Source: Gemmatimonadota bacterium (lineage in GTDB: Bacteria; Gemmatimonadota; Gemmatimonadetes; Gemmatimonadales; GWC2-71-9). From it: DNA of 41,149 bases. Each line of letters starts with the position of its first letter. Position 1 is the stretch's first letter. The stretch is taken from positions 1-41,149 of the forward strand of contig JACPAP010000024.1 in NCBI GenBank assembly GCA_016180765.1, read 5' to 3'. Shown piece after piece: positions 12,278 to 28,144 of this stretch. A program made the translations under genes and the position numbers. A model generated the notes under the pieces. That model had not been told where the DNA came from, did not search any database, and saw only the letters and a list, made by a program, of their open reading frames with translations.

Positions 12278-13626
12278 CGGCGATCCAGCCGCGCGCTGAT
12301 GCGGCGCCCCCGCACCGTGGTCCCGGTGAGCCCCCGGACCGCGCGTTCCGCTTCCTCGGCGCGCACATCCACCAGCGTGAAGCCCTCCCGGAGCTCGATC
12401 CGGCCGATGTCTTCCTTGGCCAGCCCCACGGCGTTGAGCAACGCTCCCACCAGGTCACCGGGGCGCAGCTGATCGCGCCGTCCCGCGTTGACGTGGACCC
12501 GCACCCACGCAGTCACGTCGGCCGGAGCGCCGGTGGGCGGGGCCGCGCCTCCGCGGGCCAGTAGGGCGGCCGCCACCAGCGCCGGGTCGTGCTCGTCGAA
12601 CAACGCGTCCAGGGCGAGCAGCTCCGGGAGCGGCAAGCCGGCGGCCAGCCGCTCGCGCACTTCGCGCCGAAGTTGCGTCAGCCGGTCGCGGGCCCGATCT
12701 GCGGCTCCCGGGAGACGGACGGCATCGAGCGGGGCGGCGAGGCGCTGGAGGTACGGCAGCTGGGCGGCGTCGAGCAGCACGACGATCTCCTGCGCGGCTC
12801 CCCGGAGCGCGGCGAATACGTCGGCCGACGGAAGATCCCCGGCGATCGCGAGGCCGGCGGGCCCGCCGGTCGCGCCGGGATCGCCGGTCTCGGGTCCCAG
12901 GCGCACGCCTTCGACCACCAGCATGTCCGCCCAGCGCGCGGGGGCGCCGGGGCTCGGGTCCCACACGATGGTGCGCTGGGGATCGAGTACGTCGAGCACC
13001 GCCCGGGCTGCCATCACCCGCCGAGGCCGGTCGATCACGGCATATCGCGCCGGACCCAGCGGGGCCGCCGGGAGGCGGGCGGCCCAGCCCACCGGGGCGC
13101 GCCGCGCGTGGCGCTCCAGGAAATCCGTGAGCGGCGTCTCGTCGGCCGTGAGGACGATGCGCTGTGCCGCCGGTGCGTCCGCCAGCAGCGTATCCAGCCC
13201 GCCACCGAGCCCCGCCGCCAGCATCTGCTCGGGCCACCCGATCACCACCCGCGCCAACCCCTCGAGCTTGAGCGCGGAGCGGCGCACCAGATCGAGCGCG
13301 TCGGGAAGGGTCGCGATGAGGGTACCGATTCGCCCGGCTGCCAGGAGGCGCTGGGTTCGAGCGGCGCCGGTTACGGGATGCAGGGGTCCGAGGTCGGCCA
13401 GGGAGTGGAACGCCGCCGCCAGTTCCACGGCGGCTGACGTCCCGGGAACCACGATCAACGTTGCCGGGGTCGCCTCAGCGGGCGGGAATGCCGCGAGCAG
13501 GGAGCCCGCGGCCCAGGCCGCCGGTGGGCAGACGTACACCAACGACTTCTGGGCGGCGAGCGCCGCGCGAAGCCCCGCATCCAGCGGGGGAGTGAACTCC
13601 CGAGCCACGGATCCCTCGGTTGTCAA
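12274..13626 (-). CDS. DbpA RNA-binding-domain protein with a degenerate DEAD-box helicase core
   Basis: The C-terminal 75 aa (WVRVHVNAGRRDQLRPGDLVGALLNAVGLAKEDIGRIELREGFTLVDV) is a DbpA-type RNA-binding domain. The N-terminal 370 aa are collinear with DEAD-box motifs, but every catalytic motif is substituted. The stop overlaps the HU stop by 4 nt (convergent). Confidence 0.7.
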   Translation of the reverse strand: MTTEGSVAREFTPPLDAGLRAALAAQKSLVYVCPPAAWAAGSLLAAFPPAEATPATLIVVPGTSAAVELAAAFHSLADLGPLHPVTGAARTQRLLAAGRIGTLIATLPDALDLVRRSALKLEGLARVVIGWPEQMLAAGLGGGLDTLLADAPAAQRIVLTADETPLTDFLERHARRAPVGWAARLPAAPLGPARYAVIDRPRRVMAARAVLDVLDPQRTIVWDPSPGAPARWADMLVVEGVRLGPETGDPGATGGPAGLAIAGDLPSADVFAALRGAAQEIVVLLDAAQLPYLQRLAAPLDAVRLPGAADRARDRLTQLRREVRERLAAGLPLPELLALDALFDEHDPALVAAALLARGGAAPPTGAPADVTAWVRVHVNAGRRDQLRPGDLVGALLNAVGLAKEDIGRIELREGFTLVDVRAEEAERAVRGLTGTTVRGRRISARLDRR

Positions 13627-13721
13627 ACAGACGAGCTGGTCTAGACCTTCACGGTCGGAAGGCTAGCGCGTGCGGGTCGCGATGGCAACGCCCGGGCCAG
13701 GTGCTGTAGATTCGTAGCGGT

Positions 13722-14894
13722 ATGGTGAGCCTTCCCCGCGCGGTTTCCGCCGTCACATCGCTGTCGCTCTGTGTCGCCGGCGCCCCGTCGGCGGCCCAGC
13801 AACGCCAGACCGCCCGGCAGCTCGGCGTGGTCGTGGGCGTGCTGCCCCCCGGCTCGCTCAACGCGATCACCGACGTGTCCGGCGTCCTGGTGGGCCAGGT
13901 GACCGTCCGCTCGGGCGACTCGATCAACACGGGCGTGACCGTGGTCCTGCCGCACGGTGGCAACCTGTTCCGCGACAAGGTGCCGGGCGCTGTGGTGGTG
14001 GGAAACGGGTTCGGCAAGTTGATGGGATTCACGCAGGTGCAGGAGCTGGGGGAGCTGGAGTCCCCCATCGTGCTGACCTGCACGTTATGCGTGCCGCGTG
14101 CGGCGGACGCCACGCTGACCTATCTCCTGTCGCTCCTCGGGAACGAGAGCGTCCGCTCCATCAACGTGGTGGTGGGCGAAACCAACGACGGGACGCTGAA
14201 CCACATCCGGGCTCGGCCCATCACCGAGCGGGACGTGTTACGGGCGATCGAAGAGGCCCGGCCCGGACCGGTGGAGCAGGGCAGCGTTGGGGCGGGGCGC
14301 GGCACCATAGCCTTCGGCTTCAAGGGCGGAATCGGGACCTCGAGCCGCCACCTCCCGGACCGCCTGGGGGGCTGGATCGTGGGTGTGCTGGTGCAGACCA
14401 ACTACGGCGGGATTCTCCAGATCGCCGGCGCTCCGGTCGGTATCGAGCTGGGCCGCTATTACCTCCGGGACGAGCTGGCGCCCGATGAACGCCGGGAAGG
14501 GGGAACGGGGAAAAGGGAAGGGTTGGACTCCCCGGACGGCTCCGTCATGATCGTGCTGGCGACCGACGCGCCGCTCGAGCACCGCAACCTGACGCGGTTG
14601 GCGCGGCGGGCACTCGCCGGGTTGGCGCGCACCGGCAGCTCCATGAGCAACGGCTCCGGCGATTACGTCATCGCGTTCAGTTCGGTGCCCGTCGCCCGGC
14701 TGGGTTCGATGCCCCGCATGCCCAACGACGCCATGAGTCCCCTGTTCCAGGCGGCGATCGAAGCCACGGAAGAAGCGATCTACAATTCCTTATTCATGGC
14801 CACCACCGTTGAGGGGTACCGCGGCACCGCGACGGCCCTGCCCCTGGATTCGACGCTGGCCATTCTCCAGCGCCACGGAGTGCTCCGCCAATGA
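13722..14894 (+). CDS. DmpA/P1-family aminopeptidase (peptidase S58), signal peptide
   Basis: Family-typical sequence: NAITDVSGVLVGQVT, GVTVVLPH, and the self-processing region ETNDG...GSVGAGRGT...VLATDAPL. The N-terminus is signal-like. Confidence 0.8.
   Translation: MVSLPRAVSAVTSLSLCVAGAPSAAQQRQTARQLGVVVGVLPPGSLNAITDVSGVLVGQVTVRSGDSINTGVTVVLPHGGNLFRDKVPGAVVVGNGFGKLMGFTQVQELGELESPIVLTCTLCVPRAADATLTYLLSLLGNESVRSINVVVGETNDGTLNHIRARPITERDVLRAIEEARPGPVEQGSVGAGRGTIAFGFKGGIGTSSRHLPDRLGGWIVGVLVQTNYGGILQIAGAPVGIELGRYYLRDELAPDERREGGTGKREGLDSPDGSVMIVLATDAPLEHRNLTRLARRALAGLARTGSSMSNGSGDYVIAFSSVPVARLGSMPRMPNDAMSPLFQAAIEATEEAIYNSLFMATTVEGYRGTATALPLDSTLAILQRHGVLRQ
14494..14521 (+). repeat. Heptamer block (4 x 7 bp: gggaagg gggaacg gggaaaa gggaagg) inside dmpA
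   Basis: Read directly from the sequence. It encodes REGGTGKREG in a surface-loop-like position just before DGSVMIVLATDAPL. Confidence 0.7.
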
Positions 14895-15808
14895 CGCGAC
14901 GCTGCCTCCTGGTCCGCGCCCCGCGGCTTCTGCCGCTTCTGCCGCTCCTCCTTGCCGCGCCGGTTCAGGCCCAGGGACGCCCGCTCAAGATCTACATCTC
15001 CGCCGACATGGAGGGCGTGGTGGGCGCGGTCACCGGGGACCAGCTGGGGCCCGGCGGTTTCGAGTACGAGCGGTTCCGCCAGTTCATGACCGGCGAGGTG
15101 CTGGCCGCCATCGAGGCGGCCAAAGCGGCCGGCGCCACCGAGATTCTGGTGAGCGATTCGCACGGCAACGGCGAGAACCTGTTGATCGAGCGGTTGCCTG
15201 CGGACGTCAGCGTGGTGCGCTCCTGGCCGCGGCCGCTCATGATGATGCAGGGGATCGACAGCAGCTTCAGCGCGGCACTGTTCATCGGCTACCATGCGGG
15301 CGCCGCCAATCCCCGTGGGGTCCGGGCCCACACCATCTCCAGCGCGCGGTTCGCCGACGTGCGGTTGAACGGCCGTTCCGTCACCGAAGGGGCGATCAAC
15401 GCGGCCATCGCCGGCCATTTTGGAGTGCCGGTCGTGATGATTTCGGGAGACGATGCCGCCGTGGCGGAGGTGAAGGCGCTGGTGGGCGACCTCGAGGGTG
15501 CCGTCGTCAAGTGGACTTACAGCTTCCACTCCGCGCGGACCCTGACCCCCGAGGCCTCCGTGCGGCTCATTGGGGAGAAGGTCACGGCCGCGCTCGGGCG
15601 GCTGGGGCAATTCAGGCCGTACACGCTCCCGACGCCGGTCACGCTGGACCTCCAGTTCAGGCACTACCGTCCCGCGGAGATGCTGGCGTATCTGCCCATC
15701 GTTCAGCGGACGGACGCGCACTCCATCCGCTATGTCGGCCCCGACATGCTCGCGATTTCCAAGTTCATCGAGTTCGTCACGACCTACGAGGTGGCGCTCG
15801 AGCCATGA
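14891..15808 (+). CDS. D-aminopeptidase, peptidase M55 (DppA-like), signal peptide
   Basis: KIYISADMEGVVG...VSDSHGNG is the M55 signature region. ATGA overlap with dmpA. N-terminal signal LLPLLPLLLAAPVQAQG. Confidence 0.85.
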   Translation: MTRRCLLVRAPRLLPLLPLLLAAPVQAQGRPLKIYISADMEGVVGAVTGDQLGPGGFEYERFRQFMTGEVLAAIEAAKAAGATEILVSDSHGNGENLLIERLPADVSVVRSWPRPLMMMQGIDSSFSAALFIGYHAGAANPRGVRAHTISSARFADVRLNGRSVTEGAINAAIAGHFGVPVVMISGDDAAVAEVKALVGDLEGAVVKWTYSFHSARTLTPEASVRLIGEKVTAALGRLGQFRPYTLPTPVTLDLQFRHYRPAEMLAYLPIVQRTDAHSIRYVGPDMLAISKFIEFVTTYEVALEP

Positions 15809-17067
15809 ACCGTTCGCCCAAGAGACCACCCATGACCGCCAGCGCGGGCTCGGAAGGGTATCGACTTTCCAAGAACCTCGAGTACCTGAAGCCGTCGGAG
15901 ACGGTGTCCATCAACCAGGAGACCCAACGGCGGCGGGCGGCGGGCGAGGACGTGATCGACCTGTCCGCCGGCGAGCCCGACTTCGACACGCCCAAGCTGG
16001 TGAGCGAGGCCGGCATTCGCGCGATTCAGCAGGGCAAGACCCGGTACCCGCCCAACGCGGGGATCCTGGATCTCCGGGCCGCGGTGGCGCGCCACCTGTC
16101 GTTGTTGTCCGGCGGGCGGCCGGTCAACGCGGACCATGTGGTGGTCTCCACCGGCGCCAAGCAGTCGCTGTTCAACGCCTGCATGACGTTGTTCGGCCCG
16201 GGCGACCGGGTGCTGATCCCCTCGCCGGCGTGGGTGTCGTATCCCCAGATGGTGCGGCTCGCGCGCGCCGAGCCGGTGATGGTGGCGGGCGACATCGAGT
16301 GGAGCCTCAAGGTGGACGTGGACGCGCTGAACGCGGCGTGGGACCATCGCGTCGCCGGGCTGATCCTCTGCTCACCGGTCAACCCCACGGGTGCGGTGTA
16401 CAGCCGCGCGGAAATCAAGGCGATCGCAGAGTGGACCAGGGAGAAGAACGTCTGGCTGCTTGCCGACGAGATCTACCGGCGGATCCACTACGGTTCGGGT
16501 CCGGCGCCGTCGGTGTTGGACCTGCCGGATGAGTTCCTGACCCGGGTGGTGGTCGTCTACGGCGCCAGCAAGGCCTACGCCATGACCGGCTGGCGGATCG
16601 GCGTGGCCGTCGCCCCGCTGCCGATCGCCAAGACCATGGCGGCGCTGCAAACGCACGTCACCAGTGGCGCCTGCCATCCGGCCCAGTGGGCCGCGGCCGC
16701 GGCGTTCGGCGACGAGCGGGTGGAGGCGTCCGTGGCGGAGATGGTCGAGGCGTTCCGCCAGCGCCGCGACCTGGTGGTGGGGCATTTCCGCGAGCACCTG
16801 AGCGGGGTCGAGTTCATCGAGCCACTTGGCGCGTTCTACTTCTTCTTCCGGGTGGATGGCTACTGCAACGACGAGCTCGCGACCGCGGCGGCGTTCTGCG
16901 AGCGGTTGATGGCGGAGCGAGGCGTGGCGCTGGTGCCGGGGGACGCGTTCGGCGACCCCCGCTGGGTCCGGCTATCGTACGCGGCTTCGGAGAAGGATCT
17001 CACGCGGGCGCTGGAGCGGATCACCCAGTTCGCCCGGAAGCGGGAATCGGTACGGGCCGGGCGGTAA
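15805..17067 (+). CDS. Pyridoxal-phosphate aminotransferase, class I (aspartate aminotransferase-like)
   Basis: 420 aa with a PLP-lysine region (YGASKAYAMTGWRIG). ATGA overlap with the M55 gene. Confidence 0.9.
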   Translation: MNRSPKRPPMTASAGSEGYRLSKNLEYLKPSETVSINQETQRRRAAGEDVIDLSAGEPDFDTPKLVSEAGIRAIQQGKTRYPPNAGILDLRAAVARHLSLLSGGRPVNADHVVVSTGAKQSLFNACMTLFGPGDRVLIPSPAWVSYPQMVRLARAEPVMVAGDIEWSLKVDVDALNAAWDHRVAGLILCSPVNPTGAVYSRAEIKAIAEWTREKNVWLLADEIYRRIHYGSGPAPSVLDLPDEFLTRVVVVYGASKAYAMTGWRIGVAVAPLPIAKTMAALQTHVTSGACHPAQWAAAAAFGDERVEASVAEMVEAFRQRRDLVVGHFREHLSGVEFIEPLGAFYFFFRVDGYCNDELATAAAFCERLMAERGVALVPGDAFGDPRWVRLSYAASEKDLTRALERITQFARKRESVRAGR

Positions 17068-17072
17068 TGCCG

Positions 17073-17205
17073 TGGCTCAGACGGTGAGGGCGCCGGTGGG
17101 TCCCGACGGGCGCGTCAGGGCGGCGGGCATCGCCCGAGGGGCAAGGTCCGGTGCCAGCACTGCAGCGACCGGAGGGACCCACCGGCGCCCTCGCCGTCTG
17201 AGCCA
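17073..17205 (+). repeat. Palindromic intergenic element, copy B, with 32-bp terminal inverted repeats
   Basis: Arm 17073-17104 (tggctcagacggtgagggcgccggtgggtccc) is the reverse complement of arm 17174-17205, with one T:G position. The 69-nt core is shared with copy A. It starts 6 nt after the aminotransferase stop. Confidence 0.8.
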
Positions 17206-17218
17206 CGAGCCTGGCGCC

Positions 17219-17247
17219 TTGCCCCGGTCCGGGGCGCTCGGTATTCT
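17219..17247 (+). promoter_or_regulatory. Sigma-70-like promoter for the 17281-25743 operon
   Basis: TTGCCC-N17-TATTCT, ending 33 nt upstream of the ATG at 17281. Confidence 0.35.
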
Positions 17248-17280
17248 GACCCCAACTCGTAACTTTGCTGGAATGCGTCC

Positions 17281-17793
17281 ATGGGATTCGCGGCTCGGGT
17301 CGAGCCCCTGAGCGGGAAACTGCCCACGGTCACCTTCAAGTGGGACCGGGAGACCGAGATTCTCTCGGGCCACTTCAAGGGGGCCGGCAAGGCCGAAGGG
17401 CTGACCGGTACGGTGGAGCTCGAGGGCCCCGATGGCTCGTTCGCGGTGCTGGATGTGGCGGGGGGGCGGCTCCGGGGACTCGAGGTGGTGGTGTGGCCCG
17501 AGACTCAGACGGTGCCCGGCCTCACCGCGCCGGCCGCAGCGGAACGTGGTCGGCTGATCCTTCCGGCCAGGCCGTCGCAGCCGGGGATCGCGGCGGTCGA
17601 AGTGGACACGCACATGGTGGCGGAGAAAACCCCGGACGACTCGACCATCCATCTCCGGGTCGGTCCGCCGCGCCGGGTGAAGCTGATTCAGGTGGCGGAA
17701 AACCTCGTGCTGGAGCTGGATGAGGCCAGCCAGATCGCCGGCTTCTGGTTGCTCCAAGTGCCGCCGTTCCCGCACGTCGAAGAAGGCGTCTGA
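17281..17793 (+). CDS. Hypothetical protein with two internal beta-rich half-repeats (faint DUF2283-like pattern)
   Basis: 170-aa ORF with strong GC3 bias. The halves TVTFKWDRETEILSG...AVLDVAGGRLRGLEVVVWP and STIHLRVG...LVLELDEASQIAGFWLLQVPP look related. The family assignment is only a guess. Confidence 0.55.
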   Translation: MGFAARVEPLSGKLPTVTFKWDRETEILSGHFKGAGKAEGLTGTVELEGPDGSFAVLDVAGGRLRGLEVVVWPETQTVPGLTAPAAAERGRLILPARPSQPGIAAVEVDTHMVAEKTPDDSTIHLRVGPPRRVKLIQVAENLVLELDEASQIAGFWLLQVPPFPHVEEGV

Positions 17794-17800
17794 CGCGGCG

Positions 17801-18439
17801 ATGACCGTCAACGAGCAGCTCCTCGCCTACGCCGAGCAGCTGTTCGCGCCGGAGGACGCCGCGCTCCACGAGATCCGCGCGCTGCCGGAGCGCGAAGGAC
17901 TGCCCGACATCGCCGTCTCGCCGGACGAGGGCAAGATCCTCGCGGTGCTGCTCACGGCCATCGGCGCCCGGCGCGTGCTGGAGATCGGCACGCTGGCGGG
18001 CTACAGCGGCGTGTGGATGGCTCGGGCGCTGTCCGCGGGAGGCATGCTCACGACGATCGAGGCGGACCCGAAGCACGCGGCGGCGGCACGGCGGGCGTTC
18101 GAACGAGCGGGCGTGGCGCACCGGGTTCAGCTCATCGAGGGCCGCGCGCTCGAGGTGCTGCCCACGCTCCGGCCGGGGTACGACGCGGTCTTCGTGGACG
18201 CGGACAAGGAGCCGCTGGAACAGTACTACCGGCAGGCGATGCGGCTGCTCCGGCGGGGCGGCCTGCTCTTGTGCGACAATGCCTTCTTCAACGGACGGGT
18301 GACGGACCCGCGCGACACCGCGGCCGACGTCGAGGGGGTGCGGGCGTTCAACCGGCTCGCGGCGAGCGACGCCCGGCTCGCGGCTGCCGTCATTCCGGTG
18401 CGGGACGGCCTGGTGGTCGGCGTGAAGGTGGCGGAATGA
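17801..18439 (+). CDS. Class I SAM-dependent O-methyltransferase (caffeoyl-CoA OMT-like, Methyltransf_3)
   Basis: VLEIGTLAGYSGVWMA (motif I) and VFVDADKE. The start is trimmed to the ATG at 17801. Confidence 0.85.
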   Translation: MTVNEQLLAYAEQLFAPEDAALHEIRALPEREGLPDIAVSPDEGKILAVLLTAIGARRVLEIGTLAGYSGVWMARALSAGGMLTTIEADPKHAAAARRAFERAGVAHRVQLIEGRALEVLPTLRPGYDAVFVDADKEPLEQYYRQAMRLLRRGGLLLCDNAFFNGRVTDPRDTAADVEGVRAFNRLAASDARLAAAVIPVRDGLVVGVKVAE

Positions 18440-20316
18440 AGCGGGGCGCCGGCATCGGGCGCGTGGTGGCGACGGAGGCCACGCCGGCCACGCCACACGA
18501 GTTCCGGTTTCGTGCGGCGGCCGATGAGGACGCGGTCGGCATTGGCGCGCTGGTGCGGGTAAGCGGCGACGGCGGACGGCGGGTGTATGCGGTCGTGACT
18601 GACGGACGAGCGTACGAAGCGGACGGGGAAACGGGAAACGGGAAACGGGAAACCATCCTGTGGACCGCCTCCGTGCTCCGGCAAGTCCCCCCTGAGCCGC
18701 TCCGGCCGGTGCCGATCGCGGACGTGTATCTGGCCGCGCCGGAGGACGTCGCGGTGGCGCTCCGGATGGACGCGTACTCGGCGGGGTTGCCGGTGGGGTT
18801 GTATGGGAGCGAGGCATCGCGGGCGCCGGTGCAGCTGGATCCGGATTTCCTGGTGGGGCCCGAAGCGGCGCACCTCAATGTGGGAGGGGTCTCGGGGCTG
18901 GCCACCAAGACCAGCGCTATGGTGTTCCTGCTGGCCGGCGCCTTCCAGTGCTTTCCCCGTTCGAAGGGCACCATCGCCGCGGTCTGCTTCAACGTCAAGG
19001 GCGGCGATCTGTGCTTTCTGGACCAGGCGGCGTCGCTGAGCGAGCCGGATGGGGCGATGTACCGGGCCCTGGGACTCGAACCCCGGCCGTTCGCCCGAAC
19101 GCGCTACTTCGCGCCGTTCAAGCCGGACGGCGTGAACCTCAACACCCTGCGCTCCCACGAGGAGCTCCGATCCTCGGTCCAGCCGCTGGTGTGGGGCTTG
19201 CCGGAGGTCCTGGAGTACGCCGAAGTCCTGCTCAACCGGGAGGACATCGACGCCAAGGCGGACGCCTTCATCGATTTCCTGGGAGACCGGGTGATTGGGA
19301 GGGAATTCGCCGACGACTGGGGCGGGGTGCACCGGGTGACGAGCTTCGCGGATCTGGACCGCCTGTTCCGCGCCATCTTCGACGGGCTGGAGCAGAAGGG
19401 CGGTCGGAGCGACATGTGGAGGACGCACCACGTCGCCACGATGCGCAAGGTGCGGAACCGGCTGCTCAACATCTCGGTGAGGTGCCGTGGGCTGGTGGCG
19501 GACGACGGCTCGTCCAACGATCTGCCGTTCGGCGCATTCGAGGATCGCGCGGTGTACGTGCTGGACCTTGCGGGCACCGATCAGCTGGCCCAGGATCTGG
19601 TGTTCACGCGAGTGGTCTCCAAGCTGCGGGAGCATCTGGAGCGCCGCGACCTGGGCGTGGAGCACGTCATCGTGCTGGTGGACGAGCTGAACAAGTACGC
19701 GCCGGCGGATGGCCCCGAGAGCTACGTCCGGGAGATGTTGCTGGACATCGCCGAGCGCGGGCGCTATTTGGGCCTGGTGCTGTTCGGCGCCCAGCAGTTC
19801 CGCTCCCAGGTGCACCGTCGCGTGGTCGGCAACGCCGCGACGGCGATCTTCGGCCGCAGCGACCTGGACGAGCTGGGGACGGCGGGGTATCAGGGCTTGT
19901 CGCCCGCGACCAAGATCAAGCTGGCGACGCTCCCCAAGGGGGAGTTGATGGTGCGCCACCCGCACTTCACGCAGCCCGTGTTCGTCCGGTTTCCCCGCCC
20001 GCCTGTGCTGCTGGGCGGCGAGGGGCTGGACCGGTTCCCGCCGGCCGCCGACGCGGCGTTTGACGAGGCGGTGACGCGACAGCTGGCGGCGTTGGACCGC
20101 CGGGTGGCCGCCGCCACGGTGCGCGATCTGATCGCGGACCGAGACCAGGACGATGTGCGGCGGGCTCTGCTGGCCACCCGCCGCGCCCAGCCCGACGATC
20201 CGGTGAGCTTCTTCCGGGCACGCCTGGGCCCGCGGGTGGCCCGCGAAGGGCGGGACCAAGTGGCGCCAGGCGTCCGACCTCTTTCCTCGCTGGAGGATCC
20301 GTATGCGAGCCAGTAG
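18436..20316 (+). CDS. HerA-like (HAS-barrel + FtsK/HerA-fold) ATPase with non-canonical P-loop
   Basis: 626 aa from the ATG at 18436 (ATGA overlap with the OMT gene). N-terminal HAS-barrel-like GRVVATEATPATPHEFRFRA...GALVRV...RVYAVVTD. Walker B HVIVLVDELNKYAP. HerA-like GLVLFGAQQFRSQV...NAATAIFGR. Confidence 0.75.
   Translation: MKRGAGIGRVVATEATPATPHEFRFRAAADEDAVGIGALVRVSGDGGRRVYAVVTDGRAYEADGETGNGKRETILWTASVLRQVPPEPLRPVPIADVYLAAPEDVAVALRMDAYSAGLPVGLYGSEASRAPVQLDPDFLVGPEAAHLNVGGVSGLATKTSAMVFLLAGAFQCFPRSKGTIAAVCFNVKGGDLCFLDQAASLSEPDGAMYRALGLEPRPFARTRYFAPFKPDGVNLNTLRSHEELRSSVQPLVWGLPEVLEYAEVLLNREDIDAKADAFIDFLGDRVIGREFADDWGGVHRVTSFADLDRLFRAIFDGLEQKGGRSDMWRTHHVATMRKVRNRLLNISVRCRGLVADDGSSNDLPFGAFEDRAVYVLDLAGTDQLAQDLVFTRVVSKLREHLERRDLGVEHVIVLVDELNKYAPADGPESYVREMLLDIAERGRYLGLVLFGAQQFRSQVHRRVVGNAATAIFGRSDLDELGTAGYQGLSPATKIKLATLPKGELMVRHPHFTQPVFVRFPRPPVLLGGEGLDRFPPAADAAFDEAVTRQLAALDRRVAAATVRDLIADRDQDDVRRALLATRRAQPDDPVSFFRARLGPRVAREGRDQVAPGVRPLSSLEDPYASQ
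18626..18653 (+). repeat. Heptamer block (4 perfect copies of GGGAAAC) inside the herA-like gene
   Basis: Read directly from the sequence. It encodes GETGNGKRET between HAS-barrel strands. Confidence 0.85.
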
Positions 20317-21190
20317 CGTCAGCCGCGTCCTGTATGGGGTGGTGGGGGCGGTCGTCAGCGCCGGCAGCCTCGCCGGGCAGCAACCCGTCTCGATTCAGTT
20401 CGGGGCTTCCCCCGGCGCGGCGGTGCGCACCATCACCTCGGCGCGCGGCACCATGGTGTTTCACGAAATCAACGAGGCGGGCCAACGGATCGGCGACAGC
20501 GTGATGGGCGAGATGACGGCTCTCGCCGGCGTCACCCACCGCATCCTCGAAGCCCAGGCCGGCGGCTACGTGGTCGAGGTGCGCTACGACTCCCTCAAGA
20601 CGCGGGCCCGGCTGGTGGGGCAGAACTGGAAGGAAGACGTGTGGTTCGGAGCCGCGCAGGACGCGGCGCGGGTGACGGTGGACGCGCGGCTGCGCCCGGC
20701 GGGAGGGACCGGCGGTGGCCTTCCGGCGGATCCGGTCGCGAACGGAGGCATCGCGTCCTGGCGGGGGGTCGAGCTGCCGGACCGTCCGGTGTCGCCCGGA
20801 GATACTTGGACGGTGACCACGGTGTATCGGCTGCCGGCCCAGCTGGGCCAGTTGCTGGACATCGCGATCCGCGACTCCCTCATCGCTCCCGCCACGGTCA
20901 GGCTGGACTCCGTCACGGTCCGGCCGGCAGACTCGCTGATGTACTTCACCGTGCTGCAGACGCTCCCCTCGGCGACCCTGCCGGCGGTGGATGCCGGCGA
21001 CAGCGCCACGGTGGAGCTGGTGGGCTCGCAGGCGGCCAGCCTGGTGTGGTCCACCGGATGGAACGGGTACGTCTCGGGGGCGAGTCAGGCCAGGCTGGTG
21101 GGGCGCCTGCAGAGCCGCACCGCCGCGGGGACGCCGCGGATGGCCGAGATCCACTGGACGCTATCGAGCAGGCTGCAAGTGCGGTTGTGA
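20303..21190 (+). CDS. Hypothetical 295-aa protein with a hydrophobic N-terminus, in the NurA position of the operon
   Basis: The ORF overlaps herA by 14 nt and mre11 by GTGA. N-terminus VLYGVVGAVVSAGSLAGQQ. The rest is Val/Thr-rich and beta-like. I found no recognisable motif. Confidence 0.6.
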   Translation: MRASSVSRVLYGVVGAVVSAGSLAGQQPVSIQFGASPGAAVRTITSARGTMVFHEINEAGQRIGDSVMGEMTALAGVTHRILEAQAGGYVVEVRYDSLKTRARLVGQNWKEDVWFGAAQDAARVTVDARLRPAGGTGGGLPADPVANGGIASWRGVELPDRPVSPGDTWTVTTVYRLPAQLGQLLDIAIRDSLIAPATVRLDSVTVRPADSLMYFTVLQTLPSATLPAVDAGDSATVELVGSQAASLVWSTGWNGYVSGASQARLVGRLQSRTAAGTPRMAEIHWTLSSRLQVRL

Positions 21191-22371
21191 GGATCGCGCA
21201 TCTCGCCGACGTTCACCTGGGATTTCGCCAGTATCACCGTCAGACCCCGCAGGGGATCAACCAGCGCGAGGCGGACGTGGCGCAGGCGTTCCGTCGCGCC
21301 CTGGACGACGTGATCGCCGCCCGCCCCGACCTCGTGGTCGTGGCGGGCGATCTGTTTCACTCGGTTCGCCCCGTCAACGCCGCCATCCTGGATTCCTTCA
21401 ACCAATTCCGCCGCCTCCGCGAGGGACTGCCGGAGGCGCCCATCGTGCTGATCGGCGGCAACCACGACACCCCGCGCTCGGTGGAAACCGGCACCATTCT
21501 CAAGCTGTTCGAGGCGCTGCCGGGCGTGGTGGCCGTCCCCCAGGAGCCGCGGTACCTGCGCTTCGAGCAGCTGGACCTCTCGGTGTTCTGCGTGCCGTAC
21601 GCGGCGGCGGTGAGCGCCCGGCCCCGGCTGGTCCCCAGCGGGGATGCCGGCCGCAACGTGCTGGTGGTGCACGGGCGGCTCGCCGGGCTCTTACCGGGGG
21701 ACGAGTGGTGGTACGATCACGCGGGTCCGCCCATCGAGCCCGGGGAGCTGAACCCGGAGCGCTGGGATTACGTGGCGCTGGGACACTATCACGTGGCGCA
21801 CCGGGTTCGAGAGAACGCGTGGTACGCGGGCGCCCTGGAGTACGTGAGCCCCAACCCATGGGGCGAGTTGCGTGACGAAGAGCGGGACGGGCGGTGTGGC
21901 CAGAAAGGCTGGTTGCTGGTCGAGCTGGGCGCGCGCCTGCGCGTGGAGTTCCGGCCGGTGGCATTGGCCCGCCGGGTGATCGACCTGGAACCCATCGAAG
22001 GGGCCGGGGTGCCCGCGGAGCGGCTCGACGCTCTCGTGTGCGAGCGCGTCACGGCCATCCCGGGAGGGATCGACGAGCAGGTGGTGCGGCAGCTGGTGTG
22101 GAACGTGCCGCGCTACGTGGCGCGGGACCTGGATCATGCCCGGGTCCGAGAATTCAAGGCGCGGGCATTGCATTACCACCTGGACATCCGGCGGCCCCCG
22201 CCGCGGCGCGAGGTGGGGGTCGGCGGGCCGGGGTCGCGACGCAGCTTGGCGGATATCGTCGAGGACGTGCTGTCGCGCCGGCCGCTGGAGGCACAGCTCG
22301 ATCGCCAGCGCCTCCTGGCGCTGGCGCGATCCTACCTGGAGCGGGTAGAGCGCGAGGCGCCCGAGCCCTGA
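21187..22371 (+). CDS. sbcD: Mre11/SbcD-family nuclease (calcineurin-like phosphoesterase)
   Basis: Motifs IAHLADVHLG, VVVAGDLFH, IGGNHD, VVHG and ALGHYH. GTG start at 21187. Confidence 0.85.
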   Translation: MRIAHLADVHLGFRQYHRQTPQGINQREADVAQAFRRALDDVIAARPDLVVVAGDLFHSVRPVNAAILDSFNQFRRLREGLPEAPIVLIGGNHDTPRSVETGTILKLFEALPGVVAVPQEPRYLRFEQLDLSVFCVPYAAAVSARPRLVPSGDAGRNVLVVHGRLAGLLPGDEWWYDHAGPPIEPGELNPERWDYVALGHYHVAHRVRENAWYAGALEYVSPNPWGELRDEERDGRCGQKGWLLVELGARLRVEFRPVALARRVIDLEPIEGAGVPAERLDALVCERVTAIPGGIDEQVVRQLVWNVPRYVARDLDHARVREFKARALHYHLDIRRPPPRREVGVGGPGSRRSLADIVEDVLSRRPLEAQLDRQRLLALARSYLERVEREAPEP

Positions 22372-24791
22372 TGCGGCTCCACCGCCTGAAGCTGGTCAAC
22401 TTCCGGCAGCACGTGGACAGCGATCTCACGTTCGGCCCCGGCATCACCGCGATCATCGGGCCCAACGGAGCGGGGAAGACCACCTTGCTGGAGGCCATCG
22501 CCTGGGCCCTGTACGGCGCGCCCGCGGCGCGGGGGAGCCGCGAGTTCCTGCGGTGGAACCGCGCGCCGGCGCGGGCTCCGGTGCGGGTCGAGCTGGAGTT
22601 CGGGGTCGGCGCGCACCAGTATCGCGTGGTGCGCGGGCTGTATCAGGCGGAGCTGTATCAGGACGCGGGCGATCGGCCGGTGGCGAACAGCCAGCAGGAA
22701 GTGACGGCGCGGTTGGAGCGGGTGCTGGGCATGCGCCGCGACGAGTTCTTCAACACCTATTTCACGAATCAAAAAGAGCTGGCGGTTATGGCCCGCCTGG
22801 GGCCGGCCGATCGGGCGCGCTTCTTGTCGCGGATCCTGGGGTACGAGAAGCTGCGCGAGGCGCAGGACGCGCTGCGCGCGCGGCGCTCGGAGCTCCGGGC
22901 GGAGCAGGCAGGGCTGGAACAGGGCCTGACGGACGAGGAGACGCTGCACCAGGAGCGGGTCGGCACCCAGGAGCGGCTGGACGCCGCCCGGCGGCGGGTG
23001 CGCGAGGCGGAGCGCTTGAAGGCGGCGGCCGAACGCCGGCTGGGCGCAGAGGGCCCGGCGTGGTCGCGCATGGTGAGCTTGCGCGAGTCGGTGATGTCCC
23101 TGGACGGGGAGCGGCGGCTGGCGGAGCAGCGCGTGGAGGAAGCACGGCGCGAGTTCGAACGCCTGGACCGGGAGCTGGCGCAGGCGCTCGAGGCGCAGAA
23201 GGGGCTGCGAGAGATCTCCCCCAGGCTGCAGGTGGTGGGAAGCCTGCGCCAGGAGCTGGACCGCCTGGAGCGCGAAGCCCAGGCGGCGGATCGGCGGCGG
23301 GACCTCTCGGGGCAGCTCAAAGAGGTGGCCAGTCAGATCGAGCGGGCCGAGGTGCGACTGCGCGACCTCGAGTCGGTAGACCAGCACCAGCAGCGGAGCG
23401 AGCAGGAGCTCGCCGCGGCGCACGCCGCGCTCAAGCAGGCCCAGGCCGTCGACGAGAAGGCCCGAACCGCGTGGGTGCAGGACAAGCAGGAGGCCCAGAC
23501 CAAGCTCGACCAGGCGCGGGATCAGTACAAGGAGTTGCGGGCGCACCGCCAGGGGATCCAGCAGGCGGGCCCCGACGGCACCTGCCCCACCTGCCTGCGC
23601 CCGCTGGGCGCGGAGTATGAGGCGGTGCTGGGCACGTTGGCGCGCCAACTCGAGGAGCTGGAGCTCAACGGCAAGTACTACAGCCAGCGGGTCGAGCAAT
23701 TGACCCCGGAGCCGGACGAGGTGCGTGACGCGGAGGCGCGCAGGCGGAGCGCGGCGTCGCGGGTCGAGGACCTGGTGCAGCAGGCGGCGCGGGCGCGGGA
23801 GCGGGTGCGGGATCGCGACGAAATGGCGCGGGAGTCGAGGCGACTGGGGGAGCGGCGGGCCTCGCTGGAGCGGGAGATCGCCTCGCTCCCCGATCGCTAC
23901 GATGCGGATCGCCATGAAGCGGTCCGGATCGAGCTTCGGGGGCTGGAGCCGACGATCGTCCTGGAGGCCGCGCTCCGGGTCCAGGCGGACCGCGCCGGGC
24001 GGTTGGTGGCCGAGGCGGAGGTGGCGGATCGCGAATTGACCGATCGGGAAACGCACCTCAAGCAACTGTCGGCGGCCATCGCGGATGCGGGGTTCAGCGA
24101 GGAGGCGTTCGTCGAGGCGCGCGAGCGCTACGAGGCGGCGGAGCGGGCGGTGCGGGACGTGGAACTGGAGCTGTCCACCGTGCGGGGTGACGAGCGGGCG
24201 GCCCAGCAGTTGGTCGAGGTGGCGGAGCGACGCCTGGCGGAACGAGCGGCGCGGGCGGCGCGGCTGGTGGAGCTCAAGACGGAGCTCCGGCTGCACGACG
24301 AGCTGGATCGCGCGTTTGGCGACATTCGGACCGACCTCAACGCGCAGCTGCGTCCCGAGCTGTCGGAGATCGCCTCGACGTTCCTGGCCGAGCTCACCAA
24401 CGGCCGATACCACGAGCTGGAGCTGGACGAGGAATACCAGATCCTGGTTCTGGAAGACGGCCTGGCCAAACCGGTCATCTCCGGAGGGGAGGAGGACATC
24501 GCCAATCTCGTCCTCCGGTTAGCGATCAGCCAGATGGTGGCCGAGCGGGCGGGCCAGCCCCTGAGCCTGCTTGTGCTGGACGAAGTGTTCGCCAGCTTAG
24601 ATGAGGAGCGCCGGGAGCATGTCCTGGCGCTGCTCCGGCACCTGGGGGATCGGTTCCCGCAGGTCGTGATCCTCACGCATGTCGAGGCGATGCGGGCCGG
24701 CGTGGATCGCTCGCTCCGCGTCTCGTTCGACCCCAATCGGGGTGCCGTGGTCACCGAGGAGGACGGACCGCTGCAGGATGTGGCAGCCTGA
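22371..24791 (+). CDS. sbcC: Rad50/SbcC-family SMC-like ATPase with zinc hook
   Basis: 806 aa. Walker A GPNGAGKTT, long coiled coil, CPTC hook (GTCPTCLRPLG), signature SGGEEDIANL, Walker B LLVLDEVFASLD, H-loop ILTHVE. The ATG at 22371 overlaps the mre11 TGA (TGATG). Confidence 0.9.
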   Translation: MRLHRLKLVNFRQHVDSDLTFGPGITAIIGPNGAGKTTLLEAIAWALYGAPAARGSREFLRWNRAPARAPVRVELEFGVGAHQYRVVRGLYQAELYQDAGDRPVANSQQEVTARLERVLGMRRDEFFNTYFTNQKELAVMARLGPADRARFLSRILGYEKLREAQDALRARRSELRAEQAGLEQGLTDEETLHQERVGTQERLDAARRRVREAERLKAAAERRLGAEGPAWSRMVSLRESVMSLDGERRLAEQRVEEARREFERLDRELAQALEAQKGLREISPRLQVVGSLRQELDRLEREAQAADRRRDLSGQLKEVASQIERAEVRLRDLESVDQHQQRSEQELAAAHAALKQAQAVDEKARTAWVQDKQEAQTKLDQARDQYKELRAHRQGIQQAGPDGTCPTCLRPLGAEYEAVLGTLARQLEELELNGKYYSQRVEQLTPEPDEVRDAEARRRSAASRVEDLVQQAARARERVRDRDEMARESRRLGERRASLEREIASLPDRYDADRHEAVRIELRGLEPTIVLEAALRVQADRAGRLVAEAEVADRELTDRETHLKQLSAAIADAGFSEEAFVEARERYEAAERAVRDVELELSTVRGDERAAQQLVEVAERRLAERAARAARLVELKTELRLHDELDRAFGDIRTDLNAQLRPELSEIASTFLAELTNGRYHELELDEEYQILVLEDGLAKPVISGGEEDIANLVLRLAISQMVAERAGQPLSLLVLDEVFASLDEERREHVLALLRHLGDRFPQVVILTHVEAMRAGVDRSLRVSFDPNRGAVVTEEDGPLQDVAA

Positions 24792-25743
24792 CCGCGTAGT
24801 CCAGGGCCCCAGGCAACTGGTTGAGTCGGAGATCGGACCGCTCAACCGGCTGTTTGCGGACGCGTTCACGGACCGGTATCGCAAGGACGGGCTGGTGGGC
24901 GTGCGGGTCCCGCAGCTGAACCCGGACGTCTGGCGCTACGCGCTGCGTGATGCGGGCGACGGGGCCATGGCCTGGACCGACGAGCGCGGCGACCTGGTGG
25001 CGTTCAACGTGGCCCACCACAGCGGGGTGGAAGGCTGGATGGGGCCACTGGCGGTGCGTCCGGACCGGCAGGGGCTGGGCCTGGGCAAGGCGATCATCCG
25101 CTCGGCGGTGGAGTGGCTGGTGGAGCAGCGGGTGAGGGTCATCGGGCTCGAGACCATGCCGCGGACCGTCGAGAACATCGGGTTCTACAGCAAGCTGGGG
25201 TTCGTCCCCGGCCATCTCACCATCACGCTCACCGGGGACGTGCAGCGGAGCGTGCGGGGGCGGTTCACCCGGCTGAGCGAGCTGTCCCAGCGCGAGCGGA
25301 CGACGTGGTTGCCCCGGCTGCGGGAGGCGTTGGAGGGCGGGTTGCCCGGATACGATTTCCTGCGCGAGCTGGAGCTTACCTCTCAGCTGAGCCTGGGCGA
25401 CACCGTGGTGATCGGCTCCGGCAGCGAGGTGACGGCGTTCGCGCTGTACCACTCGGTGCCGCTGGCCGAGGCACGGCCCGGCGACGAGCTGCGGGTGCTC
25501 AAGCTGTACGCGGACTCGCTCGAGACGTTCGACAAACTGATCGTGGCGCTGGAGTCCTGCGCGGCCAAGCACAAGCTCCGTCGCGTGGCGGTGCGGTGCC
25601 AGACGGGATACCACCGGGCGTACCGCTATTTGATCGAGCGAGGCTACCGGGCTCGGTGGACGGACCTGAGGATGTGGTTGGACGGGTACGGGGAGACGGT
25701 GCTGGGTGGTGGCGGCGTGCTGTTTTCGAACTGGGAAATCTGA
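24778..25743 (+). CDS. GNAT-family N-acetyltransferase (two-lobed)
   Basis: MGPLAVRPDRQGLGLGKAIIRSAVEWL is the acetyl-CoA binding motif A. The ATG at 24778 overlaps the rad50 3' end by 14 nt. Confidence 0.8.
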   Translation: MWQPDRVVQGPRQLVESEIGPLNRLFADAFTDRYRKDGLVGVRVPQLNPDVWRYALRDAGDGAMAWTDERGDLVAFNVAHHSGVEGWMGPLAVRPDRQGLGLGKAIIRSAVEWLVEQRVRVIGLETMPRTVENIGFYSKLGFVPGHLTITLTGDVQRSVRGRFTRLSELSQRERTTWLPRLREALEGGLPGYDFLRELELTSQLSLGDTVVIGSGSEVTAFALYHSVPLAEARPGDELRVLKLYADSLETFDKLIVALESCAAKHKLRRVAVRCQTGYHRAYRYLIERGYRARWTDLRMWLDGYGETVLGGGGVLFSNWEI

Positions 25744-25750
25744 GAAAGCC

Positions 25751-25806
25751 GTTTTCCGTTACCCGTTATCCGTAACTGCCTTTACGGACAACGGAAAGCG
25801 GACAAC
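25751..25806. terminator. Inverted pair of heptamer blocks forming a hairpin between convergent genes
   Basis: 25751-25778 is gttttcc gttaccc gttatcc gtaactg (reverse-orientation units). 25779-25806 is cctttac ggacaac ggaaagc ggacaac (forward units). tccgtaa/ttacgga and ccgtt/aacgg pair around a 6-nt loop. It lies between the GNAT stop (25743) and the small ORF stop (25809). Confidence 0.6.
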
Positions 25807-25808
25807 GC

Positions 25809-25973
25809 TCACCGGGGGCGCGCCTTCTCGTCAGCCCTCACAATGCCCACCGCGATCAAGACCACGCCAAGGGCCAAGGGACCGTGCACCCATCCCGACG
25901 GGATCGCCAGGGCGAAGGCCAGCACCGCCCAGAGGGCCAGGGACACCAGTGCGAGCAGGAAGTAGCGGTTCAC
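25809..25973 (-). CDS. Small (54 aa) two-TM membrane protein, not in the ORF track
   Basis: GTG at 25973, 4 nt after the M29-like stop. Translation: VNRYFLLALVSLALWAVLAFALAIPSGWVHGPLALGVVLIAVGIVRADEKARPR. Strong GC3 bias. Confidence 0.45.
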   Translation of the reverse strand: MNRYFLLALVSLALWAVLAFALAIPSGWVHGPLALGVVLIAVGIVRADEKARPR

Positions 25974-25977
25974 CGGT

Positions 25978-27132
25978 TCACGGTGTGATGAGGTGGCCGT
26001 CTTTCACCCAGACCTCGGTCCCCACGGTTACCGTGGCGTCGGCGAAGAAGTTCCAGCGGACGTACCCGCCCCTCACCGTGCCGCCCAGTTCCGTGTTATC
26101 GCCCAGGGACAGCCGGACCACGCCCGCGCCGTAGCCATAATAAGGAATCCACGGCGGATCGTCGCCGGGCACGGCGAGCAGCGGGTTGAACCCCAGGGCG
26201 AACTCGCGGAAGGCGCGCCCCGGGCCGTCCGCGGGTCCCAACTCGGCGGCGACGGCGTCGCGTCCGGTGGGTGCCTGGAAACCGGTCACGCGGCCACGGT
26301 CGAAGCTCAGGACCAGTCCCTCGACGCGGGTGCCGCCCCACCAACTGGGCGGGAAGACGATGGTACCGCGGACACTCCGCTCCAGGGGTGCCACCCGAAT
26401 GGCTCCGGCCGGCAGCTCGACCTCCCGATCCACCAGGTTGCGTGCTTGGGCGGCGCGGGCCGCGGACGCGTCACCATCCATGCGCGTCACCGGCCGGTTG
26501 CGGATCTCGAACCTGAGGTCGGTGCCGGCGGGCGTGGTGACGCGCACCACCTGGCCCCGCATCGCCTGCTCGAAGCGACGCTGGACCTCCGCCAGCCATT
26601 GGTAGTCGGTTTCCACGATCGCCCGCTGGTACACCTGGCTGATGCGGTCCGTAAGCCGCAGCGGACGGCCTTCGAGATCGTAGGCCCCGGCCCAATGGAA
26701 GTGGATGGTCCGGCCCCGGCCGGTCCGCAGCACGTCCTGCATGGCGGCGTAGGCGGTGTCCGAGGTGCTCGCGCCGGGCATCATCACCGCGAGGCCCACG
26801 CCCCCCAGGTACTCGGCCAGCTCGGCGCGCGAGGCGCCGCGCGAGCCCCGGGTGAAGGGGGTGTGCCAGTCCCCCGGCTCACCGGGGCCGGTGGCATAGA
26901 CACCCATGTCCTGACCGCCGGCGCGTTGGGTTTCCTGACGGATGAAGGCGGTGAGCGTATCAAACACACCCGGCCGGCCCACGAAGAGGACCTTCTCGCC
27001 CGGCTTCAAGGCCATGCGCGCCACGACGGCGCGGGCGATGGCGGCCCGATCCAGTCCGCTGGTTTGGGCGGTCAGGTTCCCGGCCAGGTGGAGGGCTGCC
27101 ACGAGGGCGACGAGCAACGCGGCGCGCGGCAT
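25978..27132 (-). CDS. M29 (aminopeptidase T / NicX-like) fold protein, signal peptide
   Basis: Collinear with M29 members (VRVTTPAGTDLRFEI...AGAIRVAPLERSVRGTIVF...FREFALGFNP). I could not confirm the metal ligands by eye. N-terminal signal ALVAALHLAGNLTAQ. Confidence 0.5.
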   Translation of the reverse strand: MPRAALLVALVAALHLAGNLTAQTSGLDRAAIARAVVARMALKPGEKVLFVGRPGVFDTLTAFIRQETQRAGGQDMGVYATGPGEPGDWHTPFTRGSRGASRAELAEYLGGVGLAVMMPGASTSDTAYAAMQDVLRTGRGRTIHFHWAGAYDLEGRPLRLTDRISQVYQRAIVETDYQWLAEVQRRFEQAMRGQVVRVTTPAGTDLRFEIRNRPVTRMDGDASAARAAQARNLVDREVELPAGAIRVAPLERSVRGTIVFPPSWWGGTRVEGLVLSFDRGRVTGFQAPTGRDAVAAELGPADGPGRAFREFALGFNPLLAVPGDDPPWIPYYGYGAGVVRLSLGDNTELGGTVRGGYVRWNFFADATVTVGTEVWVKDGHLITP

Positions 27133-27268
27133 GACTAAGGCTACGGCGGGGGGCGGGCGGGGGCAAACTTGGCGCGGGCAGATCCACCGTCGGTAGTCGT
27201 GCGGATCCCGCTAACCACGTGTTGTCCTAATGTCGAAGGCAGCCCTGATTCGTGGACCGACGCCGGCC

Positions 27269-28144
27269 CTAGTCCGTCCGGAACACGGCCCGGTCAATCG
27301 CCGTCAGGTCTTCCGGCGCCAGCGGCAGATCGGCCGCCGCGATCGCGTCTCGTGCGTGCTCCGGCGTCCGACTTCCCGGTATCGGGATCACGGTGGCGCC
27401 CTGGGCTAGCACCCACGCCAACGTTACCGCGTGGGTCGAGGCGCCGAGCCGTTCGGCGATGGGTCGGAGCACGGGGTGGCCCGGGAGCTTGCGGTTGAGG
27501 CGTCCTCCGCCCACCGGGCTGTACGCCAGAAAGCCGATCCTTTGCTCGGCACAGTGGGCGACCACACCGTCACGAAGGGCTTCGCGAAAGAATGGGCTCA
27601 GGCGATTCTGGACCGTGGTGATCGGCACCAGCCGGCTCGCGTCCTCGATCTCCGGAACCGACACGTTGGACAGCCCCACCCAGCGGACTTTTCCCTGCGT
27701 CCTGAGCTGGGCCAGCGCGCCCACGCTTTCGAGGAAGGAGACCCGCGAATCGGGCGCGTGAAATTGATAGAGGTCAATCCGCTCCACGCCCAGCGCCCGG
27801 AGTGAGCGATCGCAAGCCCGGCGCAGGTGGTCGGGGTGCCCGTGTCGCTCCCAGCGGCCGCCGGGTCGAGTGAGACCGCCCTTGGTCGCCACGATGAGGT
27901 GGTCCCGGGGCCCCGGCCAGGACCCGAGCGCCTTGGCGATCAGTCGTTCGTTGTGCCCCAGGTCGTTGTCATCCAGACAATAGACGTCCGCTGTATCGAT
28001 GAGCGTGGCGCCGGCGTCCAGCGCGGCGTGAATGGTCCGGATGGCTTGTTCCTCCGAAGGCCGGCCGGAAATGGAGAGCGGCATGCCACCGAAGCCGATG
28101 CTCGAGACCGCAGGGGCGTCGGGCCCCAGGGGACGGGTGCGCAC
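27269..28144 (-). CDS. Aldo/keto reductase
   Basis: GFGGMPLS...IDTADVY...NERLIAKAL is a typical AKR N-terminus. 291 aa. Confidence 0.9.
   Translation of the reverse strand: MRTRPLGPDAPAVSSIGFGGMPLSISGRPSEEQAIRTIHAALDAGATLIDTADVYCLDDNDLGHNERLIAKALGSWPGPRDHLIVATKGGLTRPGGRWERHGHPDHLRRACDRSLRALGVERIDLYQFHAPDSRVSFLESVGALAQLRTQGKVRWVGLSNVSVPEIEDASRLVPITTVQNRLSPFFREALRDGVVAHCAEQRIGFLAYSPVGGGRLNRKLPGHPVLRPIAERLGASTHAVTLAWVLAQGATVIPIPGSRTPEHARDAIAAADLPLAPEDLTAIDRAVFRTD

Follow-up and report, generated by a model that had tools for sequence, protein, structure and literature searches.

A probably exported, DUF6263-related protein encoded between herA and mre11 in a Gemmatimonadota bacterium

We analysed a stretch of 41,149 nucleotides from a Gemmatimonadota bacterium (contig JACPAP010000024.1 of assembly GCA_016180765.1; the whole stretch is called the window below), in which an open reading frame (ORF) of 295 codons, here named gene X, lies between herA and mre11. 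An earlier note on this DNA had proposed that the product may tether a complex of HerA, Mre11 and Rad50 to the membrane, or may be a novel nuclease or adaptor replacing NurA. Our results suggest that X is probably an exported, DUF6263-related periplasmic protein that rides in the operon and does not act as a tether or stand in for NurA. The gene, its putative ribosome-binding sequence and the two parts of its product are located as follows.

20303–21190, plus strand: gene X, encoding the 295-residue precursor of a predicted exported all-beta protein related to DUF6263; based on the GC content at third codon positions, the homologues, and the ratio of nonsynonymous to synonymous substitution rates (dN/dS).
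20292–20297, plus strand: Shine-Dalgarno-like sequence GGAGGA, 5 nt before the ATG of gene X; read from the sequence.
20303–20377, plus strand: predicted Sec signal peptide, residues 1–25, with n-region MRASSVSR, h-region VLYGVVGAVVSAG and c-region SLAG.
20378–21187, plus strand: predicted mature domain of 270 residues (~28.5 kDa, isoelectric point ~8.3, no Cys), with ~12 long antiparallel strands; based on the AlphaFold2 (AF2) models and the composition.

The ORF at 20303–21190 is a genuine, conserved gene. The whole stretch has ~70% G+C and is crowded with long spurious ORFs in other frames, which would agree with X being a chance open frame and no gene at all; this idea is hardly credible, given that the frame of X has the expected codon-phase signal (GC of 0.87–0.95 at the third codon position across the interval vs ~0.56 at position 2), that a strong Shine-Dalgarno sequence precedes it, that it has hundreds of homologues, and that a confident AF2 model was obtained for its product. 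The dN/dS of X against close relatives was 0.15–0.30, far below 1, compared with 0.10–0.21 for HerA, Mre11 and Rad50. These values indicate that gene X is under purifying selection, which is somewhat more relaxed than that acting on the other three proteins. A minus-strand ORF that overlaps gene X (19967–21154) was rejected because its codon-phase GC is out of phase. Regarding the start of the gene, the ATG at 20303 is the earliest ATG, GTG or TTG past the in-frame stop ending at 20206, and further in-frame starts are found at codons 13 and 14, within the hydrophobic core, and then at codons 41, 51 and 52. The use of a downstream start was rejected, since codons 13 and 14 sit in the h-region and a start at codons 41–52 would remove the first strand, which is conserved in the family. 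The possibility, raised in the earlier note, that the true start lies beyond the hydrophobic segment was therefore not borne out.

The hydrophobic beginning of the 295-residue product had been described in the earlier note, and residues 9–27 do read VLYGVVGAVVSAGSLAGQQ. The note's reading of this segment as a signal peptide also held, with a basic n-region, a hydrophobic core, and a cleavage site or lipobox that are kept family-wide. In X, R2 and R8 precede the h-region, and we infer from the sequence that the precursor would be cleaved by signal peptidase I before Q26 (SLAG, then QQP). Among 284 full-length relatives, a hydrophobic N-terminal core with a mean Kyte-Doolittle value of at least 1.9 was present in 276, and in 266 it was preceded by at least one Lys or Arg. 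When strict script patterns were applied to the relatives, 134 showed a small-residue-plus-Gln site, 107 showed a lipobox Cys, and 48 were left unclassified; by eye, most of the latter have lipoboxes (LGC, SGC, ACR; e.g. PLGCGRG, ACRG) for which the script pattern was too narrow. The alignment of the family revealed that the first ~25 residues keep their character and not their sequence, in a shared layout of one to three Arg or Lys, a hydrophobic core of 10–15 residues, a small-x-small motif, and then Gln. In the clade of the window protein the endings before this Gln are LAA, ARA, ASA and LES, position −1 is always A, G or S, and the earliest conserved motif of the mature part, LRYxPxxG, comes directly after the signal segment. 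The window protein has no lipobox and no Cys, and the distant orthologues P0048, P0131 and P0198–P0315 carry PLGCG or ACRG.

As a control, we considered the outer-membrane proteins of family PF13505 encoded in related loci of the same phylum, whose signal ends in AAQ, as in the clade of X. No segment comparable to that of X is present at the N-terminus of HerA, Mre11, Rad50, the GNAT acetyltransferase or a neighbouring 170-residue protein, and in the AF2 model of the precursor the N-terminus is a detached helix of low confidence. Judging from these sequences, a predicted export signal is a family-wide property of the relatives of X. Because the family switches between a signal-peptidase-I site and a lipobox, only an extracytoplasmic location appears possible. 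The surprise voiced in the earlier note, that an exported protein should be encoded among cytoplasmic DNA enzymes, was thus justified, since X is truly so placed.

The composition of X (Ala 13%, Val 11.5%, Gly 11%, Thr 7.5%) and the AF2 models agree with the earlier description of the remainder of the protein as Val/Thr/Ala-rich and beta-like. The model of the precursor, obtained with an alignment of 24 sequences, had a predicted local distance difference test score (pLDDT) of 83.4 and a predicted template modelling score (pTM) of 0.79; for the mature domain, with 48 sequences, these values were 89.3 and 0.86. Both models are all-beta, with ~12 antiparallel strands, many of 17–24 residues, joined by tight turns, and with one floppy loop at precursor residues ~127–167; in the mature domain the strands form a meander. 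Family-wide, the strands alternate hydrophobic with polar or charged positions, that is, they are amphipathic. A Foldseek comparison of the models with the PDB found no global match (TM-score at most 0.33) and no nuclease fold, NurA and RNase H-like ones included, so that the match to NurA or to another known family considered in the earlier note did not appear; its statement that X has no P-loop and no nuclease motif also agrees with the sequence, in which neither is present. The predicted fold is all-beta and is not that of NurA. The most probable match was LmcA (probability 1.00, E~5e-5), but with a TM-score of 0.26–0.28 and a root-mean-square deviation (RMSD) of ~11 Å. The remaining matches were outer-membrane barrels, including a COG4313 channel, OmpU, OmpG, OmpT/Pla, OpdQ and OpcA, with E-values from 4e-5 to 1e-3, TM-scores of 0.2–0.33 and RMSD values of 16–21 Å. 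An internal duplication of X was also considered, on account of the motif V-x-x-D-S-[LV]-x-x-R at 92–101 and 198–207, and was rejected (hhalign of the N-terminal vs the C-terminal half, probability 5.9% over 10 columns).

To place X in a family, we relied on its relatives. A word-indexed search of 5.8 billion proteins recovered 48 of them, and all those with a named source are labelled Gemmatimonadota; a full profile search yielded 314 cluster representatives, almost all of 260–310 amino acids. The window protein itself had no match in Pfam (E≤0.1), NCBIfam, PADLOC or the sequences of the PDB (profile, E≤10). When 58 members were scanned singly, the sole recurring Pfam family was DUF6263 (PF19777), found in 11 of them at E≤1, with a best E of 1.8e-6. 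These matches come from the lipoprotein clade and involve the C-terminal half of the model. The orthologue P0131 scored 28.1 bits on PF19777, above the gathering cut-off of 26.7, and other orthologues scored 14–25 bits at model positions ~100–195 of 196; some lipoprotein-type orthologues carry a precomputed PF19777 label. In turn, the profile of the window clade (A1) finds P0131 over its full length (residues 8–291) with E=2.4e-29. Since P0131 passes the PF19777 cut-off and is matched by the window-clade profile, X would be a divergent relative of DUF6263 that Pfam misses. Our literature search found no paper mentioning DUF6263, and therefore membership in it conveys no function.

The genomic distribution of X was evaluated in two sets of loci. 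In the first, we took X or its orthologues as seeds for 21 loci and annotated these with the window proteins; X was followed directly by mre11, rad50 and the GNAT gene in all 18 that had downstream sequence, including those of the lipoprotein/DUF6263 type (L019–L021). Against the bias of this seeding, 80 metagenomic loci were fetched by alignment with Mre11, and the 60 with at least 950 nt upstream were counted. X was found at the junction in 37 of these and was absent from 23, in 18 of which the end of herA lies 3–195 nt from the start of mre11. A neighbour-joining, midpoint-rooted tree of Mre11 contains one deep clade wholly without X, and another clade with X, from which the gene has been cleanly lost at five or more scattered points and in which it has several times been duplicated in tandem. 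X is also present in clusters without herA (L001, L003/4/9, L008, L010, L011), and in L001, L003, L008 and L010 both herA and a NurA-like gene described below are missing. Two tandem paralogues of X, each with its own signal peptide, occur in L005, L012 and L014–L018. Thus, X is dispensable, and its copy number in the operon is variable. Its identity to relatives was 28–44% where that of Mre11 was 56–66% and that of HerA 65–69%; by these values, the protein sequence of X appears to diverge at about twice the rate of its neighbours. Tandem copies were also observed in L023–L026, L058, L079 and L101; both copies lie between herA and mre11. Of the two paralogue types, one ends in RFQVRP, and the other carries HRVFQxHTR and ends in RHQVRPGT.

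In the window, the genes flanking X on the same strand are the following.

17720–18439, plus strand: O-methyltransferase gene directly upstream of herA (Pfam Methyltransf_3, 6e-45).
18436–20316, plus strand: herA, of bacterial type (PDB 7f6d_B HerA, E=1e-38); start read from the sequence.
21187–22371, plus strand: mre11 (Pfam Metallophos, 4e-14; NCBIfam Mre11_Sulfo, 2.7e-22); GTG start read from the sequence.
22371–24791, plus strand: rad50 (NCBIfam PRK03918, 1.2e-56; SMC_N and AAA_23).
24778–25743, plus strand: GNAT acetyltransferase gene (Pfam Acetyltransf_1); start uncertain, 24679 or 24778.

From the methyltransferase gene through rad50, successive genes overlap start to stop. The ATG of herA overlaps the methyltransferase stop (ATGA), the herA stop at 20316 falls inside X, giving an overlap of 14 nt with its start, and the TGA of X and the GTG of mre11 at 21187 share the sequence GTGA (a 4-nt overlap); the earlier statement that both ends of gene X overlap genes for cytoplasmic DNA enzymes is therefore accurate. 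The downstream Mre11 and Rad50 are archaeal-like. The window HerA had no Pfam or NCBIfam match at E≤0.1 and was recognised by its similarity to HerA of D. radiodurans (7f6d_B), which includes the Walker A motif GxSGxATKTS and the Walker B motif DELNKYAP; it seems that bacterial HerA of this type escapes the standard family models. A long GTG-initiated extension of herA (18013–18435) was considered spurious, as it is rich in Arg, Gly and Ala, is in the wrong codon phase, and covers a region where the methyltransferase frame codes. The GNAT gene, which encodes 320–354 amino acids (24679 or 24778 to 25743), overlaps the end of rad50. In practically all related loci with enough downstream sequence it comes next after rad50, regardless of whether X or herA is there. 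The genes mre11, rad50 and GNAT constitute an invariant triad, possibly a more meaningful functional association than that of X.

The same-strand block around X brings together exported peptidases, an aminotransferase, methyltransferases, repair genes and the GNAT gene. Its S58 (DmpA-like, 13722–14894) and M55 (D-aminopeptidase, 14891–15808) products begin with signal-peptide-like segments that end in AAQ or AQAQ, and therefore the syntenic block already mixes exported and cytoplasmic products. A conserved protein of 170 amino acids encoded at 17281–17793 lacks a family match and a signal peptide; in most related loci its gene keeps its syntenic place upstream of the cluster, with 37–95% identity. 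A scan of 13000–27500 for promoters and terminators found nothing beyond the shuffled expectation. We rejected a defence-island reading of the region, because the matches of Rad50 to the LmuB and PtuA models reflect generic SMC/ABC similarity and the synteny is of a conserved housekeeping kind.

The proposal that X is a nuclease or adaptor that replaces NurA beside HerA would be suggested by the gene content of the window: X adjoins herA, no NurA-like ORF is found in the 41 kb, and there is no room for one next to herA, where the methyltransferase stop overlaps the herA start. From this absence, the lineage keeps herA without an adjacent nurA, and the gene is also missing in L006, L007, L022 and L089. 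The family even conserves acidic residues, with D96 and D210 invariant and D65, D127, D202 and D230 nearly so. In many relatives, however, a gene of ~331 codons lies just upstream of herA (e.g. L002:7043–8038, L019:5025–6029, L020:5043–6038). The two best PDB matches of its profile are NurA of D. radiodurans (7f6d_H, E=0.15) and TM1739 (1zup, E=0.31), and the protein has the conserved motifs FLDGIQ and WLVVDG; these matches are weak, yet mutually consistent and positionally apt, and suggest that the gene may be NurA-like. X co-occurs with it in many loci and therefore would not be its replacement. The export signal, the all-beta model as opposed to the RNase H-like alpha/beta fold of NurA, the lack of any NurA match in the PDB by profile (E≤10) or by fold, the lack of an invariant His, the clusters that contain X without herA, and the 23 loci without X all point in the same direction, and they make a substitute for NurA extremely improbable. 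The bacterial NurA–HerA paper makes no mention of Gemmatimonadota or of membrane partners. A functional coupling of X to HerA, Mre11 and Rad50, either as an uncleaved signal-anchor or as the envelope part of a co-regulated response to DNA damage, desiccation or DNA uptake, would find its basis in the position of the gene: X is directly upstream of mre11 in the 18 X-seeded loci and in the 37 further Mre11-seeded ones, this adjacency outlasts the loss of herA and of the NurA-like gene as well as tandem duplication, and X overlaps both neighbouring genes at its start and stop codons, which implies that they are transcribed together and coupled in translation. Nevertheless, X is not present wherever these genes are, as an obligate subunit would be, and herA adjoins mre11 in most of the clusters without X. 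The tether of the earlier note fares no better: the n-region has only ~8 variable residues ahead of the hydrophobic core, too short for docking, so that there would be no cytoplasmic module to hold HerA or Mre11, and the signal is terminated by a cleavage site or, in the distant clade, by a lipobox; variants with a lipobox cannot serve as tethers facing the cytoplasm. The fast divergence and changes in copy number are unlike those of a core subunit, and in the block around X, repair genes stand beside those of metabolic enzymes and exported peptidases. We consider such a coupling distinctly unlikely, and the same holds for a reading in which X supplies the envelope side of a unit that shares its regulation with the archaeal-type double-strand-break repair module, where it could be a periplasmic or outer-membrane factor made together with Mre11 and Rad50 under desiccation or DNA-damage stress, or one handling incoming or extracellular DNA.

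Another view is that X sits in the outer membrane as an integral beta-barrel of a porin-like or omptin-like kind, and is not a soluble periplasmic protein. The host organism is diderm. Many outer-membrane barrels are among the Foldseek matches, X has a predicted Sec signal peptide, and its strands are long and strictly amphipathic, a property that by itself could not discriminate between the two. The low TM-scores and high RMSD values of those matches imply similarity only at the level of hairpins. An aromatic C-terminal residue (F or W) occurs in 3 of 284 members, the usual endings being VRL, VRP and EAK, unlike those of the PF13505 outer-membrane proteins from the same loci, which end in FTFGM or AFGAGK. 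In the models, the turns appear short at both strand ends, without long extracellular loops, and a large clade of orthologues consists of lipoproteins, which would be unusual for integral barrels. We therefore regard an outer-membrane barrel as unlikely, and infer a soluble periplasmic location for X.

According to the explanation that we favour, an exported DUF6263-related protein riding in the operon, X would be exported by the Sec pathway, and removal of its ~25-residue signal peptide by signal peptidase I would release a soluble all-beta protein of ~28.5 kDa into the periplasm of the Gemmatimonadota host; in distant orthologues the same domain would be lipid-anchored through the lipobox cysteine. 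One branch of Gemmatimonadota may have gained the gene at the herA–mre11 junction, where it would remain co-transcribed and translationally coupled, kept by the architecture of the operon. Many duplications and clean deletions of it would have followed, with the genes for DNA-end processing left in place. X would not be a physical part of the HerA–Mre11–Rad50 machinery, because many relatives run this machinery without it, and its placement would reflect operon history and no physical partnership. Its most likely role, on the speculative analogy of LmcA and other elongated barrels of the periplasm, would be that of an envelope scaffold or a binder of a hydrophobic ligand.

Several observations weigh against this explanation. 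The link between X and DUF6263 is transitive, is confined to the C-terminal half of the Pfam model, and leaves the window protein itself unmatched. The cleavage site is a heuristic small-residue call and not the output of a trained predictor, and the low TM-scores of the structural matches make the lipid-binding analogy weak. The loci without X are metagenomic and of uncertain taxonomy. Moreover, where X is present it is only ever seen directly upstream of mre11, and in the window its start and stop overlaps force co-expression with DNA-repair genes; so constant a position could stem from a link in function or regulation. If true, a functional link between X, Mre11 and Rad50 would join envelope and DNA-repair functions in an unusual way.

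These results remove a tempting mis-annotation, as the gene that these Gemmatimonadota carry between herA and mre11 would not be a cryptic NurA, a nuclease or a tether. They also provide a predicted compartment, outside the cytoplasm, and a predicted fold class for the Gemmatimonadota branch of the DUF6263 superfamily, which Pfam currently misses. For DNA-repair specialists, the more useful lead is probably the archaeal-style (nurA)-herA-mre11-rad50 cluster of Gemmatimonadota with its invariant downstream GNAT gene.

Among known systems, NurA resembles X in that its gene, too, adjoins herA in a cluster that includes mre11 and rad50, and differs from it in that X has a predicted export signal, an all-beta fold, and no sequence or fold match to NurA. 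Like X, the outer-membrane barrels (OmpT/Pla, OmpG, OpcA and the COG4313 channel) have a signal peptide, and their strands are long, amphipathic and antiparallel, whereas X superposes on them with low TM-scores, lacks a C-terminal aromatic residue, has short turns at both strand ends, and has lipoprotein orthologues. LmcA of mycobacteria (MSMEG_0317, PDB 7n3v/7shw) is an elongated beta-barrel of the periplasm, and its enclosed cavities suggest that it binds lipids (PMC8972800). Like X, it is exported and all-beta with long antiparallel strands; unlike X, it has a C-terminal transmembrane helix, and besides the poor superposition given above, the two share ~10% identity and no relationship at the sequence level. 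The closest comparison is with the uncharacterised DUF6263 (PF19777). The window protein and its clade have no match to this model at E≤0.1, and about half of it is covered by the orthologues, but the lipoprotein-type orthologues that do match it fill the identical genomic slot as X.

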